Both the position numbers and the translations under genes were made by a program. A stretch of DNA of 53,690 bases from NCBI GenBank assembly GCA_964570465.1, contig CAZMYG010000003.1:7740-61429 (forward strand), written 5' to 3'. Within the stretch, counting starts at the first letter, position 1, and the number at the start of each line of letters is the position of its first letter. The notes beneath the pieces were generated by a model. That model saw only the letters and a program-made list of their open reading frames with translations. It made no database searches and was not told where the DNA came from. The DNA comes from an uncultured Planctomycetales bacterium. GTDB lineage: Bacteria > Planctomycetota > UBA1135 > CAZMYG01. Positions 8,444 through 51,709 of the stretch are shown piece after piece.

Positions 8444-9948
8444 CGCGCTCTCCCTCGCAATCGCTCGAGTCTTGATTGAAGCACCCAGGGGGAAACTCCT
8501 GATCCTTCTTTACCGCCACCGATTTTCAAAGAGCGACGTCTTCGTCGCAAATGCCGGTGAACGGCGGAGACAATAGCTGCGGCTTCTTCGGATTCTGGGT
8601 TGGCAAGCGAGGGTTTGAATCGTTCCAAATAATGCGTATCGAACTCTCCTTTTCGGAAAGAAGCATCCTTCAGCACACGCAACGCATAAGGAACACCGGT
8701 GCGCACGCCTCCGACATAAAATTCCCGCAACGCGCGTTCCATACGCAAAATGGCGGCCTGTCGGTCTTCTGCCCAAACAATCGCTTTCGCTAGCATCGAG
8801 TCATAGAAAGGCGTTACCACCTGCCCGCGATAAAGAGCAGAATCAATTCGTACCCAAGGTCCTCCGGGGAATCGAAGATTCACAATCGTTCCTGTCGAAG
8901 GCATGAAGTTTTTAGTGGGGTCCTCTGCGTTGACCCGCACTTCAATGGAATGCCCACGAGGAGTTGTTTGATCTTGTTTGATCGAGAGCTTTTCTCCTGA
9001 GGCGATTCGGATTTGTTCACGAACGAGATCGATGCCGGTCACCATTTCGGAAATCGGGTGCTCTACTTGAAGGCGCGCATTCACTTCAATGAAGTAGAAC
9101 TGCCCCCCGGCGTAGAGAAACTCCACCGTCCCCGCGTTTACATAACCAGTAGCCTTGGCAATGCGAATGGCGGAGTCTTGTAATTGAGCGCGAGTTTTTT
9201 CATCCACAATTGGCGAGGGGGTTTCTTCAATCAGTTTTTGATGTCGTCGTTGTATTGAGCATTCTCTTTCGGCGAGTGCTACCGTATTTCCGTGACGATC
9301 GGCAAGAATCTGTACTTCAATGTGTCGAGGACGATCTAGATATTTTTCCAGATAGAGCCTGCCGTCACCAAAAGCGGCTTTGGCTTCACCACTTGCCGTA
9401 CGGAATGCAGATTCAAACTCTTTTTCCTCGCGCACGACGCGAATCCCGCGTCCACCGCCACCCGCGGCGGCTTTTAGAACAACGGGATAGCCAATTTTCT
9501 TTGCCTCAGTGCTCGCCTCTACGGGATCTCCGATGGGATCCACCGGGCCAGGGACAACTTGTACACCAGCTTTTTTTGCGGCGCGTTTCGCTTCGATTTT
9601 GTCGCCCACTGCCTGCATAGTCGCTGGCGTTGGACCAACAAAGGTGATTTTTGCGTCGGCACAGGCTTTGGCAAATTCCGGGTTCTCGGAGAGAAAGCCA
9701 TAGCCAGGGTGAACGGCATCGACGCCAGCCTTTTTGGCTACATCAACGATCTTATCGATGCGCAAATAGGACTCTCGTGCTGGAGAAGGCCCGATCGGGT
9801 AAGCCTCCCTCGCCATTCTTACGTGCAGAGACGTGCGATCGGATTCGGAATAGACGGCAACCGTTGTAATACCCATCTCCCGGCAGCTGCGGATGACTCG
9901 GAGTGCGATTTCCCCACGGTTTGCGATAAGTAGTTTCTTGAAGGCCAT
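8440..9948 (-). CDS. accC: Biotin carboxylase subunit (acetyl/propionyl-CoA carboxylase)
   Basis: LIANRGEIA, HPGYGFLSEN, GGGGRG, ECSIQRRHQK and EVNARLQVEHP motifs. Confidence 0.95.
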   Translation of the reverse strand: MAFKKLLIANRGEIALRVIRSCREMGITTVAVYSESDRTSLHVRMAREAYPIGPSPARESYLRIDKIVDVAKKAGVDAVHPGYGFLSENPEFAKACADAKITFVGPTPATMQAVGDKIEAKRAAKKAGVQVVPGPVDPIGDPVEASTEAKKIGYPVVLKAAAGGGGRGIRVVREEKEFESAFRTASGEAKAAFGDGRLYLEKYLDRPRHIEVQILADRHGNTVALAERECSIQRRHQKLIEETPSPIVDEKTRAQLQDSAIRIAKATGYVNAGTVEFLYAGGQFYFIEVNARLQVEHPISEMVTGIDLVREQIRIASGEKLSIKQDQTTPRGHSIEVRVNAEDPTKNFMPSTGTIVNLRFPGGPWVRIDSALYRGQVVTPFYDSMLAKAIVWAEDRQAAILRMERALREFYVGGVRTGVPYALRVLKDASFRKGEFDTHYLERFKPSLANPESEEAAAIVSAVHRHLRRRRRSLKIGGGKEGSGVSPWVLQSRLERLRGRAR

Positions 9949-16857: not shown

Positions 16858-16940
16858 AGAGGGACACTCGTTAGATTGTCGGATTCTCCAGTTCAGCAAC
16901 GCTGAACTGGAGAATCCGACAATCTAACGAGTGTCCCTCT
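16858..16940. repeat. Perfect palindrome (40-bp arms, 3-nt loop); copy 1 of a GGGACACTCGTTA hairpin family
   Basis: AGAGGGACACTCGTTAGATTGTCGGATTCTCCAGTTCAGC-AAC-exact reverse complement. Confidence 0.97.
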
Positions 16941-36410: not shown

Positions 36411-36629
36411 ATGAATCCCACTCCGGAAGAACTTTTAGAAGAATTAATCGCTCAACAGCGAAAGAAGTTACTCGCCTTGGCCAATCGAATCAATCCGCGT
36501 CTTACGGCGGACGATATTGCCCAGCCTCATGACTGGCCCGAGCTTGCGAGCGATGCGCAGTTTCAATATGAAGACGGCATTCTTGCTGGACTACTTGCTG
36601 CGCAAGTTGCATTGCGCCGTAAGCCGTAG
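36411..36629 (+). CDS. Small hypothetical protein (72 aa)
   Basis: Protein-like helical sequence (PHDWPEL...FQYEDGILAGL) filling the gap between pepP and the S8 protease. Its stop codon lies in the palindrome. Confidence 0.7.
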   Translation: MNPTPEELLEELIAQQRKKLLALANRINPRLTADDIAQPHDWPELASDAQFQYEDGILAGLLAAQVALRRKP

Positions 36630-36712
36630 GGACACTCGTTATATTGTCGGGTTCTCTGACGCAGCTTTGCCGCGTCAGAGAACCCGACAATATAACGAGT
36701 GTCCCTACGGCT
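36622..36712. repeat. Perfect palindrome (41-bp arms, 9-nt centre); copy 2 of the GGGACACTCGTTA hairpin family
   Basis: AGCCGTAGGGACACTCGTTATATTGTCGGGTTCTCTGACGC-AGCTTTGCC-exact reverse complement. Confidence 0.97.
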
Positions 36713-47947: not shown

Positions 47948-48973
47948 TCAGCGCGCAGCTTCGAACTTTTTGAGCCTCTCCTGCAATTCCTCTTTCAGGG
48001 TTTTTGAATCCGCAAGCTCAACAGCTTTTTTCTGGGTTTCGATCGCTTTGTCATATTGCTTGAGTCGGAAATAGCATTCTGCCAAGGTGTCCAGGACGCC
48101 AGCTGAGTTGGGCTCTTTTGCGACGGCCTTTTTGGCGTACTCCAAAGCCCGATCTAGTTTTCGATTGTGAGTGGCAAGAAACCAGGCGTAATCGTTAAGC
48201 CATATCGCATCATCAGGTTTGTTTTTGATGACATACTCGAAAGAAGGCTCCGCGATATCCGGATGATCTTTCTGGGCGAGGAATGCGGCGATTGTTTCAT
48301 GCGCGGGAAGAGCAAACTTAGGATCGGGGTATTTTTTTGCAAAAGAAAGCAGCTTGCTCGTGTCTCCGCTTTCTTCCAACGCCATGATGGCGAGATCTCG
48401 TTTCGCAAGAATGGCGGATTCGGTCTTGGTTTCAAAATCGAGCTCGAGAATTTTATTCAAATGCTCTGCGGTTTTTTCGCGCTCGCCGCGCTCGCGGTAT
48501 TTGCCTGCTAGCTTCCAATGTAATTGGGGATCGTTAGGAGAATTGGAAACTTCCTTTTGTAGGGTTTGGAAGTTTTTCCCGCCTTGGAATTCTTTGAGCT
48601 GTTTGATGAACTCCGCCGACTCCGCATAGCCAGAGATTCGATCTGTTTCTTTGCCATCGGCTTCAACGAGTACAAAAGTCGGAAATCCGTTCACTCCGTA
48701 TTTCTTCGCGATTCTCGGGCCCTCTCCCTTTTCTGCATCGATTTTCCAAGTGACGATTCCATTGAGATAGGAAATCACCGAAGCATCTTGGAAAGTTGTC
48801 TTGTCCATCTTTTTGCACCAAACACACCAATCCGTGAAAAAGTCGATGAGCACGGGCTTTTTCTCGGCTTTTGCTTTGGCGAGAGCTTCTTCAAAATTGC
48901 CTTGGAAGTAAGTAACACCTTCGCCAGAAATGGGGGCGGCGAGAGTGAATAAGAGCGCAAGTTCTGCAACCAT
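47948..48973 (-). CDS. Exported thioredoxin-fold protein with TPR repeats
   Basis: Signal-like N-terminus, WCVWC (CxxC), cis-Pro GFPT; C-terminal LNDYAW..LDTLA TPRs. Confidence 0.88.
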   Translation of the reverse strand: MVAELALLFTLAAPISGEGVTYFQGNFEEALAKAKAEKKPVLIDFFTDWCVWCKKMDKTTFQDASVISYLNGIVTWKIDAEKGEGPRIAKKYGVNGFPTFVLVEADGKETDRISGYAESAEFIKQLKEFQGGKNFQTLQKEVSNSPNDPQLHWKLAGKYRERGEREKTAEHLNKILELDFETKTESAILAKRDLAIMALEESGDTSKLLSFAKKYPDPKFALPAHETIAAFLAQKDHPDIAEPSFEYVIKNKPDDAIWLNDYAWFLATHNRKLDRALEYAKKAVAKEPNSAGVLDTLAECYFRLKQYDKAIETQKKAVELADSKTLKEELQERLKKFEAAR

Positions 48974-49037
48974 GTTTTTTCCTCAGACAAGAAAAGTGTT
49001 TCTCATCCTAGGTTCTATCTAATAAATATCCAGGTTC

Positions 49038-50657
49038 ATGAAGAGACGCTTTTTCAGGGGACCTCTAATAATTTCTCGCGGCTGGTTTGCGGCGGAGTCG
49101 GACGGCGGCTTTGTTGCAGCTCCTCCGAAACCCGTCCTAGGAGGGTTGCGTCGTCGCTGCGCCTCGCCGCCCTCCGACCGCGCTCGCAAACCAGCTCGCG
49201 GGGAATTATTAGAGGTCCCCTTCATCCTTTTACTGCTTTGCCTGTTCCCGTATTTCCTCGGGCTGAACTCTGTAGGCCTTTTTGAGGCGGAGGAAACGCG
49301 GCAGGCATTGATTGCGAAGGAAATGTTCGAGACCGGGAATTGGCTAGTGCCGCGCTTGTCGGGAGTGCCGATTCTGGAAAAACCTCCGCTTGCGAGCTGG
49401 TTGGTGGCGGGGTCATTTCATTTATTCGGGGTGCAGGAGTGGTCTGCGCGGCTTTTGTCTTTGCTCTGTGCGCTGTTCACGGTGTTTTTTGCTGTGCGGC
49501 TTGGAACTTTGCTAGCCAATCAAAACGCAGGAGGGATTGCCGGAATATTGCTTGCGACAAGTCCGCTCTTTTTTGGAATGGGACGGTTGTTGAGTACAGA
49601 TATGTTGTTTAGTGCAGCGATCGGCGGCGGGCTGTATTTCCTCTTAGCCTACTCAGTCAAGAACTCTTGGTATTCGGCCTTGGGATTTGGACTCAGTCTC
49701 GCTGCGGCATTACTAAGCAAAGGTCCTATCGGCGCTTTCTTATTAGGCTTCGCTGTATTGGCGTCGAGTTGGACTCAGCGCTCCTGGAAGGAATGCAAGA
49801 TTCTATTTCACCCTTTAAGTTTGCTGCTAGCGATTGGATTGAGCCTGCCTTGGTTTTGGCTGATTGCGCAGCAATATCCATCCTTCCTCGATCATTACTT
49901 GCATCAGCATTTAGGGCGGTTTTGGGAAGTCGATTCGAGTGAACGCGATTTTCATGCGGAGCCGCTCTGGTATTACCTGCCAGTCATTTTTGGAGTTTTC
50001 TTGCCGTGGAGCGCTTTTCTCATTTCTGCTTTCCTGAATGTTAGAAAGAGTTTCTTGCCAAATTGGGATTGCAAACGAACTCGTGCGCTTTGGCTTTGGG
50101 CGCTGCTTTCCTTTGCTTTCTTTTCTGTTTGTGCAGGGAAGCGAATTCCCTATTTACTGCCGCTGCTACCGGCCTTAGCCGTTGGGGTTGCGATCTATCT
50201 CGAAAGCTGGATGGTGAAGAAAAAAAATCGCCCGATTCTTCTTCGAAACTTAGCTCTAGCTACGATCGCGCTAGAAATGACTTTGGTATTTTTCCTGTCC
50301 CACTTTGATTCTCGTATTTCGATGCGTAGCACGATGGAGCAAGCACAGGCTTGGATGGAGACAGGAAGAACGTTAGTGCTCTTTCCACGCTATCGACCTG
50401 GACCTTTTTACTATTCACCGTTTCCAGTCAAAGTCTGTGGTTCCCCGGACGAACTCGATTTTGGTCTGGAATTGGAGCCGCAGCGGGCGGGCATTTTTCT
50501 CTCGGATCCGGAATTTAGCGCTTTGTTGTATCGACCTGGCTCTTTGGTGATTGTCGGTCCTTCAGATCATTTGCTGTCAAATTTGAAACGCTGGGACCCA
50601 ACAGGGAAATTTCAACGTGCCGGAGAAAATCAAAAATGGATGGTGGTTAAAAACTAA
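49038..50657 (+). CDS. ArnT/PMT (GT-C) family glycosyltransferase carrying a 56-aa MITE-derived N-terminal insertion
   Basis: ETRQALIAKEM, WLVPRL..EKPPL, EWSARL, KGP, PLWYY and KRIPYLLP motifs; many TM helices. Confidence 0.88.
   Translation: MKRRFFRGPLIISRGWFAAESDGGFVAAPPKPVLGGLRRRCASPPSDRARKPARGELLEVPFILLLLCLFPYFLGLNSVGLFEAEETRQALIAKEMFETGNWLVPRLSGVPILEKPPLASWLVAGSFHLFGVQEWSARLLSLLCALFTVFFAVRLGTLLANQNAGGIAGILLATSPLFFGMGRLLSTDMLFSAAIGGGLYFLLAYSVKNSWYSALGFGLSLAAALLSKGPIGAFLLGFAVLASSWTQRSWKECKILFHPLSLLLAIGLSLPWFWLIAQQYPSFLDHYLHQHLGRFWEVDSSERDFHAEPLWYYLPVIFGVFLPWSAFLISAFLNVRKSFLPNWDCKRTRALWLWALLSFAFFSVCAGKRIPYLLPLLPALAVGVAIYLESWMVKKKNRPILLRNLALATIALEMTLVFFLSHFDSRISMRSTMEQAQAWMETGRTLVLFPRYRPGPFYYSPFPVKVCGSPDELDFGLELEPQRAGIFLSDPEFSALLYRPGSLVIVGPSDHLLSNLKRWDPTGKFQRAGENQKWMVVKN
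49057..49220. mobile_element. 164-bp MITE with 17-bp perfect TIRs and 4-bp TTCA target-site duplication
   Basis: GGGGACCTCTAATAATT (49057-49073) and AATTATTAGAGGTCCCC (49204-49220); TTCA at 49053-49056 and 49221-49224. Imperfect pairing extends about 55 nt inward. Confidence 0.9.
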
Positions 50658-51709
50658 CCAGGGCCGCGTAAGTTTTTGAGCTTGGCGATGGCATCGAGCA
50701 CGGATTTTTTCTCGGAAGGAGAAGTTGACGGAGGCTCGGGAGCTTTTCGAACGGGCTGTTCATGTGCATGAGTTCCGCCAGCCGGGGCTGCAACTGGAGC
50801 CGGCGCCGGCGCGCTAGCCAAAATACTTCCAGGTCTCGCCTTTGCGCTGTGCTGCGCGAATTCCAATTGTTCGAATAAGTTGACAGCTTTTTCAGCGGAT
50901 TCAGCGCTCTTCTGAGCGGCAGAGGCTGCCAGGCTGGCGGCTTCAAGAGACTGATGAATCAAAGCCTGGCTCTTCGAGATTTCTGTATGCAGCTTGGCCA
51001 GACCATTACGCTCTTCTTGCTGTGCGTTAGTGATTGCCGTTTGCAGTGGCTCGAGTGAAACGGTCGGCGCTTTCAGATTAATTAAAACGGTTTTCAATTG
51101 TTCTAATTGCTGTTGAATGGGCTCTAGTGATTTGCCTCGATTCGAGAGCATGGCGCTATCTTCGCGCAGTCGCGACATTTGGACTTTGATCTCTTCAAAG
51201 GAGCCGGCGATTTCTTCAATTTTGAGTTCCTGCTTTTGCAAGCTGGTATGAACGGTTTCCAAGGGTTTCGCAAATTTCTGCGAAGCCGTGAGCACCGGAG
51301 AAATGCGCTCTTCGAGTCGTTCCGCAAAAGGACGAAGGGCTGCAAGTAAGGAAGCCACTTCTCGATCGAAAGCCTGCTCGGTGAGATCGCTCATTTTGCC
51401 TTCGATGCGGCGTAAGTCCTTCATCAAAAAGAAAAACGCAAGTAATACGGCTCCCATTCCTGCGAGCATTCCACTCAAGAGCATCGAGCTTTGATTCGAG
51501 GCGGCTGCAGCTTTCTCGATGCCTTCGGGAGTGACCGTGGCCGCGGCGCCTGCAGGGTTCGCTGGGTTCGGCATTTCTCCCATCTGCAGAGAGAACATCA
51601 AAATACCGCCGACCAAAGTGGCGGCCCCCAAGACTGCCAAGAGAATAGGGAAAATTCCCAGCGGAGCTGAGTTTGCTTCAGATTCGGGGCGTTTTATTTC
51701 TTCGTCCAC
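50654..51709 (-). CDS. Hypothetical membrane protein with two TM helices and a long coiled coil
   Basis: Two hydrophobic segments, heptad-like region, Pro/Ala linker and amphipathic C-terminal helix (SVLDAIAKLKNLR). GTG start with GAGGA RBS. Confidence 0.75.
   Translation of the reverse strand: MDEEIKRPESEANSAPLGIFPILLAVLGAATLVGGILMFSLQMGEMPNPANPAGAAATVTPEGIEKAAAASNQSSMLLSGMLAGMGAVLLAFFFLMKDLRRIEGKMSDLTEQAFDREVASLLAALRPFAERLEERISPVLTASQKFAKPLETVHTSLQKQELKIEEIAGSFEEIKVQMSRLREDSAMLSNRGKSLEPIQQQLEQLKTVLINLKAPTVSLEPLQTAITNAQQEERNGLAKLHTEISKSQALIHQSLEAASLAASAAQKSAESAEKAVNLFEQLEFAQHSAKARPGSILASAPAPAPVAAPAGGTHAHEQPVRKAPEPPSTSPSEKKSVLDAIAKLKNLRGPG

Follow-up and report, generated by a model that had tools for sequence, protein, structure and literature searches.

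The Correia or NEMIS repeats of Neisseria are hairpin-forming MITEs of about 100–160 bp that have terminal inverted repeats (TIRs) and a short duplication, TA, and that are known from one genus only; they are often co-transcribed with neighboring genes, carry a functional site at their center and, when transcribed, form hairpins that are cut by RNase III in Neisseria. The Rickettsia palindromic elements (RPEs) are, in the available portions of two accounts, frequently intragenic and in frame and encode a conserved peptide (PMC10969869, PMC3733652). The first of these accounts, again in its available portions, terms in-frame fusions of MITEs with host open reading frames "not unusual" and names ERIC, BOX, QMITE1 of Coxiella, and MITEb/e of Anabaena (PMC10969869).

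The window analyzed here is a stretch of 53,690 nucleotides from the assembly of an uncultured Planctomycetales bacterium (GCA_964570465.1), in which a MITE-like element lies in frame near the start of a gene for an ArnT-like glycosyltransferase. The locus resembles the RPEs as portrayed in those portions in that a palindromic repeat of about 150 bp is in frame in a gene and adds a peptide to an otherwise intact protein. It is unlike them in that all but one of about nine loci in this genome lie outside genes and frame neutrality is not a property of the related families, and also in its clear TIRs and target duplication and in the phylum of its host; it should be noted that this comparison is one of anatomy rather than sequence. 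With ERIC, BOX, QMITE1, and MITEb/e, as outlined in the same available text, the element shares its small size, TIRs, non-autonomous character, and capacity to form a hairpin, but it has no known cognate IS, and it is the center rather than the termini that is conserved across the phylum. The phylum-wide structured core also distinguishes it from the Correia repeats, as does its 4-bp flank, which is TTCA here and CTAG in related families of two other genomes (G060 and G141). REPIN/RAYT and TIRtron/TIRYT, in the available part of their description (PMC3733652), are likewise hairpin doublets dispersed in a genome, and this genome holds one such Y1 system; however, the window element has a target duplication, and the Y1-linked doublet family is distinct from it. 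The host protein is like the ArnT of PDB entry 5EZM in its GT-C fold, PMT_2 domain, and acidic motif after the first transmembrane segment (TM1) but differs in having a 56-residue N-terminal insert and in falling below the ArnT equivalog cut-off.

Results

Anatomy of the Insertion

The interrupted gene (49,038–50,657, plus strand), recognized from Pfam, PDB, and NCBIfam matches and an AF2 model, would encode an ArnT-like GT-C glycosyltransferase (PMT_2/GT39) of 539 residues including the insertion. In the list of open reading frames, a divergent intergenic region of 64 bp (48,974–49,037) separates its ATG from a thioredoxin/TPR gene on the minus strand that starts at 48,973. The coding sequence opens with ATG at 49,038, followed by AAG AGA CGC TTT TTC; these native codons 1–6 (49,038–49,055), encoding MKRRFF, are identical in product to residues 1–6 of an orthologue, P0001. 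They are followed by the element GGGGACCTCTAATAATT...AATTATTAGAGGTCCCC (164 bp; 49,057–49,220, plus strand), which is delimited by its sequence, inverted repeats, folding, and a copy in another sequencing run, X7. Copies of TTCA adjoin it at 49,053–49,056 and 49,221–49,224, the left one being read from the sequence and from an empty-site contig of a related population and the right one from the sequence and contigs.

The anatomy is MITE-like. The inverted-repeat search identified 17-nt perfect TIRs at 49,057–49,073 and 49,204–49,220, and a genome-wide search found the exact 17-mer only at these two ends; they lie within outer arms of 25 nt that are 92% complementary (49,056–49,080 and 49,197–49,221), which are followed by inner arms of 11 nt that are 100% complementary (49,081–49,091 and 49,185–49,195). 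The 164 bp contain no transposase coding, the open frames corresponding to repeat-derived peptides of about 54 residues, and their G+C content is 64.6%, as compared with 49.6% for the window. Both a target duplication and an empty site are present, the duplication being open to two parses, 4-bp TTCA or, with TIRs read as AGGGG...CCCCT, 2-bp TC; either way, 168 bp have been added. The first-pass annotation had proposed that a MITE of 164 bp plus a 4-bp TTCA duplication makes up 56 stop-free codons, and this holds, the frame at 49,038–50,657 reading through for 539 residues; the open frame that it placed on the minus strand (49,019–49,225) is also present and would encode 68 residues.

Filled and Empty Alleles

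In the protein database, P0001 has 483 residues (539 minus 56) and is identical at 437 of 465 positions (94%); its N terminus is MKRRFF followed immediately by TLLLLCLLPYF. The alignment with an orthologue that had been suggested in the first-pass annotation therefore gives the clean 56-residue gap that was predicted, the insert residues being absent after MKRRFF, and removal of the element restores a native N terminus. At the DNA level, the empty site comes from run contigs: a contig from X7, which represents a related population with 90–95% identity, joins 49,051 to 49,220 and so skips exactly 168 bp. The same run contains the 164-bp element with other flanks, 92% identical with 13 differences and no gaps, and another right end whose flank differs from both; for the second copy, no matching 4-bp duplication is seen in the loose-end consensus (TTTT versus ATTT). 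Because the orthologue has 483 residues, the relative shows the 168-bp skip, and a 92% identical copy lies elsewhere in that relative, the lineage-specific transposition of a mobile, noncoding, TIR-bearing palindromic element into a coding sequence is confirmed as genuine. The insertion and its boundaries, the empty site, and the second copy in the relative are direct observations.

The filled allele is found in the three biofilter-sample runs where this genome occurs (X1, X2, and X3), which were examined as Logan contigs, in which rare alleles are invisible. A 4084-bp contig from X1 bridges the site with 0 differences over 48,500–49,521, a contig from X3 (49,037–49,800) bridges it with 0 differences, and contigs from X2 overlap the junctions. 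None of the X1–X3 contigs skips the element, contigs being prone to drop rare variants, and no sign emerged of the removal at the DNA or RNA level that the first-pass annotation had considered. The species-representative genomes, which include no close relative but only genomes of the same order with at most 37% protein identity, provided no empty site at the DNA level.

Search for a Partner Transposase

A transposase with matching ends had been anticipated, but none emerged from TIR and domain searches of this fragmented assembly, of metagenomes, and of G060. Apart from the element, the TIR search of the genome returned only a similar sequence with a single end, on contig C86 beside an Rce1-like gene; a 23-nt TIR pattern gave a single, uninformative match in the JGI metagenomes (L060), in an unrelated-looking noncoding context; and the TIR sites sampled in G060 were MITE-sized pairs in seven of eight cases and a solo end in the other, with no transposase domain near the solo end. 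Profiles PF01609 and PF13358 had no match in the fragmented, 91% complete assembly of this genome, and the two genes matched by PF01797 come from a different repeat family. Mobilization in the manner of REP/REPIN sequences by RAYT/TIRYT enzymes was rejected: the Y1 transposase gene on contig C33 is flanked by a distinct 30-nt TIR unit that occurs in about 15 doublets, its similarity to the TIR of the element is marginal (about 5% of shuffles are as good; p ∼0.05), and Y1_Tnp has no match in G060 or G001, both of which are rich in the core described below. The label MITE therefore rests on anatomy and on presence and absence, since no autonomous partner with matching ends was found; a transposase acting in trans is what we infer.

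A Hairpin-Repeat Family with a Conserved Core

The central ∼65 nt of the element form a structured core supported by covariation (alignment A1), with lineage-specific arms and termini on either side. In the window, this core corresponds to the hairpin apex (49,104–49,172, plus strand), which is the best match of covariance model R1 (79.3 bits; G000:C3:56843-56911, where G000 denotes this genome). In its consensus, GTTGC-NGC-TCCTCC-GAAAC-[short hairpin]-GTTGC-GTCGTC-GCN-GCGCCTYG, GTTGC occurs twice, isolated C-G pairs are bracketed by pyrimidine-pyrimidine mismatches that are themselves conserved, and the terminal hairpin covaries. With R1, eight cores were identified in this genome; when 151 genomes were searched from the order and 151 from the phylum, Planctomycetota, the model matched 42 and 32 of them, respectively, with up to about 80 copies per genome. 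This spread of the core is observed, and the element belongs to a large Planctomycetota hairpin-repeat superfamily in which the apex is conserved and arms and termini are lineage-specific.

One full copy of the 164-bp subtype is assembled here, and at least two with other flanks are present in X7; copies of a related subtype occur at no fewer than seven loci in this genome, mostly at contig ends. Seven of the eight other matches to the element are within about 150 nt of a contig end in this assembly of 239 contigs. As a separate observation, the repeat family fragments metagenome assemblies, and its copies are often directly 5′ of gene starts. The sister family in G060 has about 80 copies and that in G141 at least 10; in G060, a TIR pattern gave 86 + 79 matches as compared with 0 + 0 for a control pattern.

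IS5-group elements generate a 4-bp duplication and have a YTAR target. CTAG is found on both flanks in 8 of 8 aligned copies in G060 and 6 of 6 in G141, and TTAG-like flanks are found at C21; other copies in this genome have TTAA, TTTA, TATA, or CATA, and the window copy has TTCA. No IS5-type transposase linked to the family was found.

A search of Rfam 15 returned no family, the best match being a generic hairpin match to mir-3132 (22 bits versus 84; E = 0.26), and no published description of this repeat family was found in the open-access literature searched. A hammerhead-like reading of CGAAAC-stem-GUU was dropped on inspection by eye, there being no CUGANGA, no stem II, and no Rfam ribozyme match. 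The CGTC and GTAG families of REP sequences were also discarded, their 8–9-bp stems and tag, as given in the available text of PMC3733652, being unlike the core. We suggest tentatively that the 65-nt apex may be a functional structured module and possibly a binding site for a mobilizing enzyme or a host factor, as single-stranded DNA or as RNA.

The Host Glycosyltransferase and Its Tail

The host protein matches Pfam PMT_2 (E = 2.1e-19; 70.7 bits versus a cut-off of 26.1) and, over residues 4–331 of the post-insert protein, its nearest relative of solved structure, PDB 5EZM, the ArnT of Cupriavidus metallidurans (E = 3.7e-33). All 36 aligned sequences have the acidic residue that follows TM1, Glu86, as befits a PMT_2 protein. 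The score against the NCBIfam ArnT equivalog model NF009784, 162.3 bits, lies under the 567-bit cut-off, and the protein appears to be ArnT-like rather than an ArnT equivalog (lipid A L-Ara4N transferase).

An in-frame TAA at 49,020 makes ATG 49,038 the first start. Up to codon 90, ATG, GTG, or TTG occurs in frame only twice, as this ATG and as a TTG within the element (49,146–49,148), the sole canonical alternative before TM1; the next is codon 91, past TM1 and the acidic motif, and the codon scan found none between the element and TM1. The internal TTG seems an unlikely start, as it follows the Shine-Dalgarno-like AGGAGGG by about 1 nt, a poor spacing. With no ATG, GTG, or TTG from the element to TM1, the suggestion that the element is only untranslated leader does not apply and, for the same reason, element-encoded residues must be part of the enzyme, if it is made.

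The insert peptide has 10 Lys and Arg as compared with 5 Asp and Glu, and has no TM-like stretch, its maximal 19-residue hydropathy being 0.48 versus 2.0 for TM1 (residues 56–74). In the AF2 model, residues 1–55 are coil (pLDDT 41–50), TM1 is a helix at residues 56–72 (codons 49,203–49,253), and the remainder is confident (pTM 0.83); the first seven residues of TM1, ELLEVPF, derive from the right end of the element and the TTC of the right TTCA. The N-terminal length before the invariant Glu is 27–87 residues in 35 homologues and 85 here, so that a stretch of this length has a counterpart in one homologue. The cytoplasmic N-terminal peptide that had been proposed agrees with the basic, non-TM, disordered stretch that precedes TM1 in the model; the insert fits a basic, disordered, cytoplasmic tail, the translation, location, and tolerance of which we infer.

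The 539 codons show neither a frameshift nor a stop nor any other sign of decay, and the reading frame is intact. Among the listed differences from the relative within 49,401–49,553, 12 are synonymous and 3 are nonsynonymous, an excess that spans the whole divergence of both lineages rather than the time since insertion. Two paralogous ArnT-like genes, 33% identical, are on contigs C130 and C70.

Reading Frame

Four of the six frames of the element are open (forward 1 and 2, reverse 1 and 2). Shuffled sequences reach four or more at a rate of 2.8% when mononucleotides are shuffled and 9.2% when the shuffles are palindromized, which makes the count only mildly unusual (p = 0.03–0.09). Because the length with the duplication is a multiple of three and four frames are open, the window copy would keep a host frame open in two of the three insertion phases in either orientation. 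The first-pass annotation saw here a coding-compatible palindromic element with the RPEs as precedent, and the wider family does not bear this out. Among the approximately nine assembled loci in this genome, to which the census refers, the window copy is the only intragenic one; the copies on C94, C50, C29, C111, C210, C230, C26, and C40 are intergenic, several of them immediately upstream of gene starts. For 21 related copies in G060 and G141, the length plus 4 is 0, 1, or 2 modulo 3, and 0–3 of six frames are open. The copies in G060 have 0–2 open frames, and 9 of 15 are not multiples of three, the other 6 being a 158-bp subtype that, with 4 bp added, is; all six copies in G141 shift the frame by +1, and a compound copy of the C94 type (∼265 bp) plus 4 bp is not a multiple of three. 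A census of spanning open reading frames in high-GC relatives was set aside as too noisy, spurious open frames being frequent.

Hairpin and Expression

The RNA of 49,020–49,260 folds with −125.3 kcal/mol (z = −9.9; 0 of 200 shuffles as good), and the DNA of 49,053–49,224 folds with −65.8 kcal/mol (z = −10.4). The long hairpin in the RNA begins at 49,056, 19 nt past the A of the ATG, as had been noted. A scan of 48,850–49,350 scored no σ70-like promoter and no terminator-like site. Judged from the predicted fold, a hairpin so near the start codon could strongly lower translation or expose the mRNA to cleavage.

Discussion

The explanation that we favor, with a probability of about 0.6, is that a non-autonomous, MITE-like element of 164 bp, with TIRs and a 4-bp TTCA duplication, has inserted after codon 6 of a gene for an ArnT-like, lipid-carrier-dependent glycosyltransferase and would be tolerated there as a near-neutral or mildly costly in-frame insertion, giving an enzyme with a tail if the enzyme is made. 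The insertion postdates the split from the ∼92–94% identical relative. Translation, if the enzyme is made, would proceed from the native ATG at 49,038 and place 56 element-encoded residues ahead of TM1 and the catalytic loop, both of them intact. The frame survives because copy and duplication together are 168 bp and four of six frames are stop-free; as part of the same explanation, this would be a lucky but moderately probable outcome (two of three phases) that involves no adaptation of the family. It should be recognized that the intact reading frame may reflect merely a young insertion and that, since there are two paralogues, on C130 and C70, loss of this ArnT-like copy might be tolerated. 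These considerations lead to the alternative that the gene is silenced or crippled, the hairpin blocking initiation or elongation or being cut as double-stranded RNA, with the frame intact because the insertion is recent and the phase permissive, and with the paralogues covering the function. The stability of the hairpin (−125.3 kcal/mol, z = −9.9) and its start at +19, the RNase III cleavage of Correia/NEMIS hairpins, the two paralogues, and TIRs that are perfect over 17 nt beside an intact duplication, which suggest a young insertion, are all in keeping with silencing. However, there is no frameshift, stop, or decay in 539 codons, the filled allele is assembled in runs from three studies, the phase is open and the peptide compatible with the positive-inside rule, and the stem begins beyond the region contacted by the ribosome, which reaches to about +18, so that we consider silencing rather unlikely.

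Long palindromes between short direct repeats stimulate precise deletion through replication slippage. This and the exact 168-bp empty form in the relative are what can be said for a reversible switch, also raised in the first-pass annotation, in which the element, together with one TTCA, would be excised precisely and at appreciable frequency, so that the gene reverts to wild type and envelope modification becomes phase-variable. But the empty form is found only in a diverged population (90–95% identity) from another study and not in X1–X3, where contigs are weak evidence either way; moreover, direct repeats of only 4 bp are rather short for slippage to be efficient, and nothing supports a renewed insertion into the same site, without which there is no true switch, making such a switch very improbable. 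Even less probable is a gene-adapted, RPE-like family, with length and open frames selected for translation as protein segments: the 168 bp, the four open frames (p = 0.028 against mononucleotide and 0.09 against palindromized shuffles), and the 158-bp subtype of G060 (6 of 15 copies a multiple of three with 4 bp added) are as this would have it, but they are set against a single intragenic locus here with copies on eight named contigs intergenic, the 9 of 15 copies in G060 that are not multiples of three and their 0–2 open frames, the uniform +1 shift in G141 (6 of 6), and the ∼265-bp C94-type copy. An assembly or binning artifact, by which a repeat was misplaced in the gene, might be suspected in an assembly of 239 contigs where seven of eight other matches to the element are within ∼150 nt of contig ends, but its probability is negligible given that independent Logan contigs from X1 and X3 run across the two junctions without a single difference and X2 contigs overlap these junctions, the TTCA duplication is exact at the junctions, and the frame is open.

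The in-frame insertion of a hairpin element is a known phenomenon, whereas the repeat family to which this element belongs, notable for an unusually conserved center, is previously undescribed in the literature searched. The proof of insertion is unusually direct, comprising both the filled and the empty allele and another copy at a different site, and in-frame insertions are thus documented in a free-living planctomycete lineage, at the N terminus of an envelope glycosyltransferase. The core motif is present in about a quarter of the sampled genomes of the order and about a fifth of those of the phylum, in multiple copies and outside Rfam. If the apex is indeed a functional module, the family would represent a Planctomycetota-wide class of mobile hairpins that keep their center and can vary their termini, contrary to ordinary MITEs, and the copy found in frame in the gene for the ArnT-like enzyme would be one by-product of an active, uncharacterized transposition system; what recognizes the apex could then reveal a new route of hairpin-DNA mobilization or a new regulatory RNA module.

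The Element and Its Insertion Site

The first-pass annotation had described a palindromic element in the 5' end of an ArnT-like glycosyltransferase gene, and its observation is accurate: a 164-bp element (49057-49220), bounded left and right by a TTCA duplication (49053-56 and 49221-24), lies within an ORF of 539 aa (49038-50657) that stays free of stops through the element, and a 68-aa ORF crosses it on the opposite strand (49019-49225). Over 48800-49500, the gene start reads ATG AAG AGA CGC TTT TTC A, passes into GGGGACCTCTAATAATT...AATTATTAGAGGTCCCC, and continues as TTC ATC CTT TTA CTG. Alternative boundaries (AGGGG...CCCCT with a 2-bp TC duplication) can be drawn, and the added length is 168 bp under both parses. 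A repeat search finds 25-nt (92%) and 11-nt (100%) arms, and the G+C content is 64.6%, as against 49.6% for the window. The RNA of 49020-49260 is predicted to form the single long hairpin reported earlier (−125.3 kcal/mol, z −9.9, equaled by 0 of 200 shuffles), and the DNA of 49053-49224 folds with −65.8 kcal/mol (z −10.4).

Among species-representative genomes no close relative of the protein was found, the matches coming from the same order with at most 37% identity. A large protein database holds an orthologue, P0001, of 483 aa, which is exactly 539 − 56; it is identical at 437 of 465 positions, begins with MKRRFFTLLLLCLLPYFLGLNSVGLFEAEETRQ, and shows the clean 56-residue gap at the element that had been anticipated. 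The stretch is present in six biofilter metagenome runs from three studies and, as a small share, in X7, a biofilm run from a fourth study; contigs of runs X1, X2, X3, and X7 were compared over 48500-49800. The filled allele is spanned by one X1 contig (48500-49521, 0 differences) and one X3 contig (49037-49800). X7 contains a relative that is 90-95% identical, of which one contig joins 49051 to 49220 with 168 bp missing, an empty site; a 521-bp X7 contig carries 49057-49220 with 13 differences and no gaps between other flanks, and a further right end of the element has a third flank. Because the site is filled here and empty in the relative, where the element is present elsewhere, the element has undergone transposition, or insertion followed by lineage sorting; the same empty site and additional copies led us to reject an ancestral protein segment. 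Insertion is thus proven.

Two partial likenesses should be noted. Contig C86 of the source genome (126-150) resembles the left end of the element, including the upstream TTTTTCA, with 2 differences over 49050-81 before unrelated sequence begins. An Rce1-like CAAX protease gene lies ∼180 nt downstream of this likeness, which may represent a solo end or reflect target preference. The single metagenome match to the 23-nt TIR (terminal inverted repeat) pattern, in a JGI contig (L060:842-973), falls where the DNA looks non-coding and includes a 16-nt inverted repeat of its own.

The Host Protein

The product matches Pfam PMT_2 above the cut-off (E 2.1e-19). Among solved structures it is closest to ArnT of C. 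metallidurans (5EZM, E 3.7e-33), but the NCBIfam ArnT equivalog score of 162 bits is far below the 567-bit cut-off; it is therefore designated an ArnT-like GT-C enzyme. An in-frame TAA lies six codons upstream of ATG 49038. Between this ATG and TM1 a single canonical in-frame start occurs, TTG 49146, which lies within the element ∼1 nt downstream of AGGAGGG; thereafter none comes before codon 91, past TM1 and the acidic motif. Since there is no other start before TM1, a functional enzyme must bear residues encoded by the element (56 of them, or no fewer than 26 with the TTG as start), and the alternative that the element is only an untranslated leader does not apply.

The insert contains 10 Lys + Arg, 5 Asp + Glu, 8 Pro, and 7 Gly, and has no hydrophobic stretch (maximum 0.48 versus 2.0 for TM1). 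In an AlphaFold2 model from 36 sequences (pTM 0.83), residues 1-55 are coil with pLDDT 41-50 and the TM1 helix starts at residue 56. This helix opens with ELLEVPF, seven residues encoded by the right end of the element and the TTC of the right TTCA. In 35 homologues, 27-87 aa (median 34) precede the invariant Glu; in the window protein, 85 do so. Among the differences from the X7 relative listed for 49401-49553, 12 are synonymous and 3 non-synonymous. By the positive-inside rule, a basic tail before a first transmembrane helix would be expected in the cytoplasm. The insert is basic, non-hydrophobic, and modeled as coil before TM1, in keeping with the cytoplasmic peptide proposed at first, although neither composition nor model shows that the protein is made. 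We predict, with a probability of about 0.6, that the insert is a tolerated cytoplasmic tail. That the insertion has instead silenced the gene is less likely. The hairpin at +19 may lower expression, and the two further ArnT-like genes of the source genome (on contigs C130 and C70, 33% identical) could mask a loss. The suggestion of a switch was not supported. Downstream, a minus-strand ORF of 351 aa (50654-51709) is convergent with the glycosyltransferase gene, whose last 4 nt it overlaps; the encoded sequence is hydrophobic near its N-terminus, then charged and rich in Ala, Glu, and Lys, and has no Pfam match.

Reading Frame

Four of the six frames of the element are open, frame 0 being closed in each orientation by TAA TAA / TAG in the TIRs and a central CCTAGG. 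The 164 + 4 bp added are divisible by 3, so that a host ORF would stay open after insertion in two of the three possible phases, whichever way the element is oriented. When the sequence is shuffled, at least four frames are open in 2.8% of mononucleotide versions and 9.2% of palindromized ones. The first-pass annotation had placed the element in a coding-compatible class like the Rickettsia palindromic elements (RPEs) and looked to other copies for an in-frame preference within genes. No such preference was found: the assembled relatives in the source genome (contigs C94, C50, C29, C111, C210, C230, C26, and C40; 76-86% identity) are intergenic. Several are directly at gene starts, the C40 copy ending 5 nt before the ligA start, the C210 copy lying upstream of a dxr-like gene, and the C26 copy adjoining a start codon. 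The lengths and open frames of other copies likewise do not support a coding-adapted family: the C94-type compound copy (∼265 bp) is not a multiple of 3, only 6 of 15 copies in genome G060 are so with the 4-bp flank (0-2 open frames), and all 6 copies in genome G141 give a +1 shift (3 open frames). The RPE-like reading is not supported, because other copies of the family do not behave like coding-adapted repeats.

According to a 2024 review of prokaryotic MITEs (PMC10969869), it is "not unusual" for intragenic MITEs to be fused in frame with host ORFs; the review cites ERIC, BOX, QMITE1, and Anabaena MITEs, with RPEs as the extreme case. In-frame MITE insertion is a kind of event already known; this copy is new.

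Mobilization

The transposase with matching ends that had been sought was not found in the source assembly (91% complete): there is no second exact copy of the TIR, and DDE_Tnp_1 and DDE_3 have no match. Two Y1 (IS200-like) genes are present. One, IS200/RAYT-like and of 339 aa, lies in C33:18210-19447 between perfect 30-nt TIRs that belong to a family other than that of the element and have marginal similarity to the element's TIR (shuffle P ∼0.05). REPIN-like inverted doublets of this 30-nt unit, ∼15 in all, are spread over 12 contigs; two lie in the window (16859-16940 and 36629-36706). The central stems of the doublets differ by compensatory changes. Y1 genes were not found in two core-rich genomes, G060 and G001. 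The 4-bp flanks in the family are CTAG, TTAG, and TTAA, with TTCA at the window element, and we take them to resemble IS5-group targets.

The Family and Its Conserved Core

A BLAST search of 301 genomes of the order matched 28, including the source genome. All matches outside the latter are partial (at most 83 of 164 query positions), and the best involve the central part of the element within different long inverted repeats. An alignment of 19 centers gives the consensus GTTGC-NGC-TCCTCC-GAAAC-[short hairpin]-GTTGC-GTCGTC-GCN-GCGCCTTG, a core of ∼65 nt that recurs at the apex of long hairpins unrelated in other respects. RNAalifold assigns 18 pairs, 13 with compensatory changes; 93.3% of pairing cells can pair, versus 78.6% in shuffles and 29-53% with the partners slid, and of 500 shuffles none reaches the observed values on four of five measures and 7 do so on the fifth (further pair types). 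Both C94 and C50 have TCG TCG / CTC CTC in place of TCC TCC / GTC GTC in their second units, and single C-G pairs are retained between conserved pyrimidine-pyrimidine mismatches. Rfam contains nothing similar to the element, and no account of core or family was found in the open-access literature searched; Di Nocera et al. 2013 (PMC3733652) describe REPs of the GTAG and CGTC types, together with families of TIRs that surround tyrosine transposases, among them some in Rhodopirellula baltica.

A covariance model of the core finds eight copies in the source genome: at the apex of the window element (49104-49172), as two units each in C94 (41-109 and 154-223) and C50 (30-98 and 143-212), and in C26 (15197-15265), C40 (13045-13114), and C21 (9447-9517). 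The core-bearing hairpins C26:15148-15315, which adjoins the start codon of a minus-strand gene, and C21:∼9400-9570 have near-perfect arms of ∼47-51 bp, not seen elsewhere in the assembly. A related subtype has the TIR GGGCACCTCTAAAAACTACCGC and a compound two-core form of ∼265 bp; its copies are at the ends of C94, C50, C29, C111, C210, and C230, and 7 of the 8 BLAST places of the element lie within ∼150 nt of contig ends. Because of this location, the repeat family is one cause of assembly fragmentation, and its copy number is under-counted.

Within the order, the model matches 42 of 151 genomes, with 7 of 9 other families represented, and across the phylum 32 of 151 (both counts include the source genome), with at least 34 scored matches in several genomes. 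When all species representatives were scanned with an exact pattern, 11 stretches matched, in 5 MAGs; of these MAGs, three are titled or placed as Planctomycetota, one as Ca. Eisenbacteria (L055 and L056), and one as Sandaracinaceae (L051). Two of the MAG records are identical in sequence to order-mates G297 and G289, and it is on this identity that we take the phylum to be Planctomycetota. The exact cores in MAGs titled as other phyla reflect either horizontal spread of elements or planctomycete contigs that were binned wrongly.

In complete genomes the units are MITE-like, sharply bounded, and numerous, with copies of 157-159 bp. G060 has 86 + 79 TIR matches (control pattern, 0 + 0), and CTAG is present on both sides of 8 of 8 aligned copies there and 6 of 6 in G141. 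Two copies sit inside another copy, inserted at a CTAG within its core flank (G060:C1 ∼1666012-1666577 and 2186485-2187050), which suggests recent activity and CTAG targeting in G060. Across lineages, arms and termini differ and the apex is kept; MITEs that arise from insertion sequences by internal deletion would be expected to show the opposite pattern. It is this phylum-wide conserved apex that makes the family worth following up.
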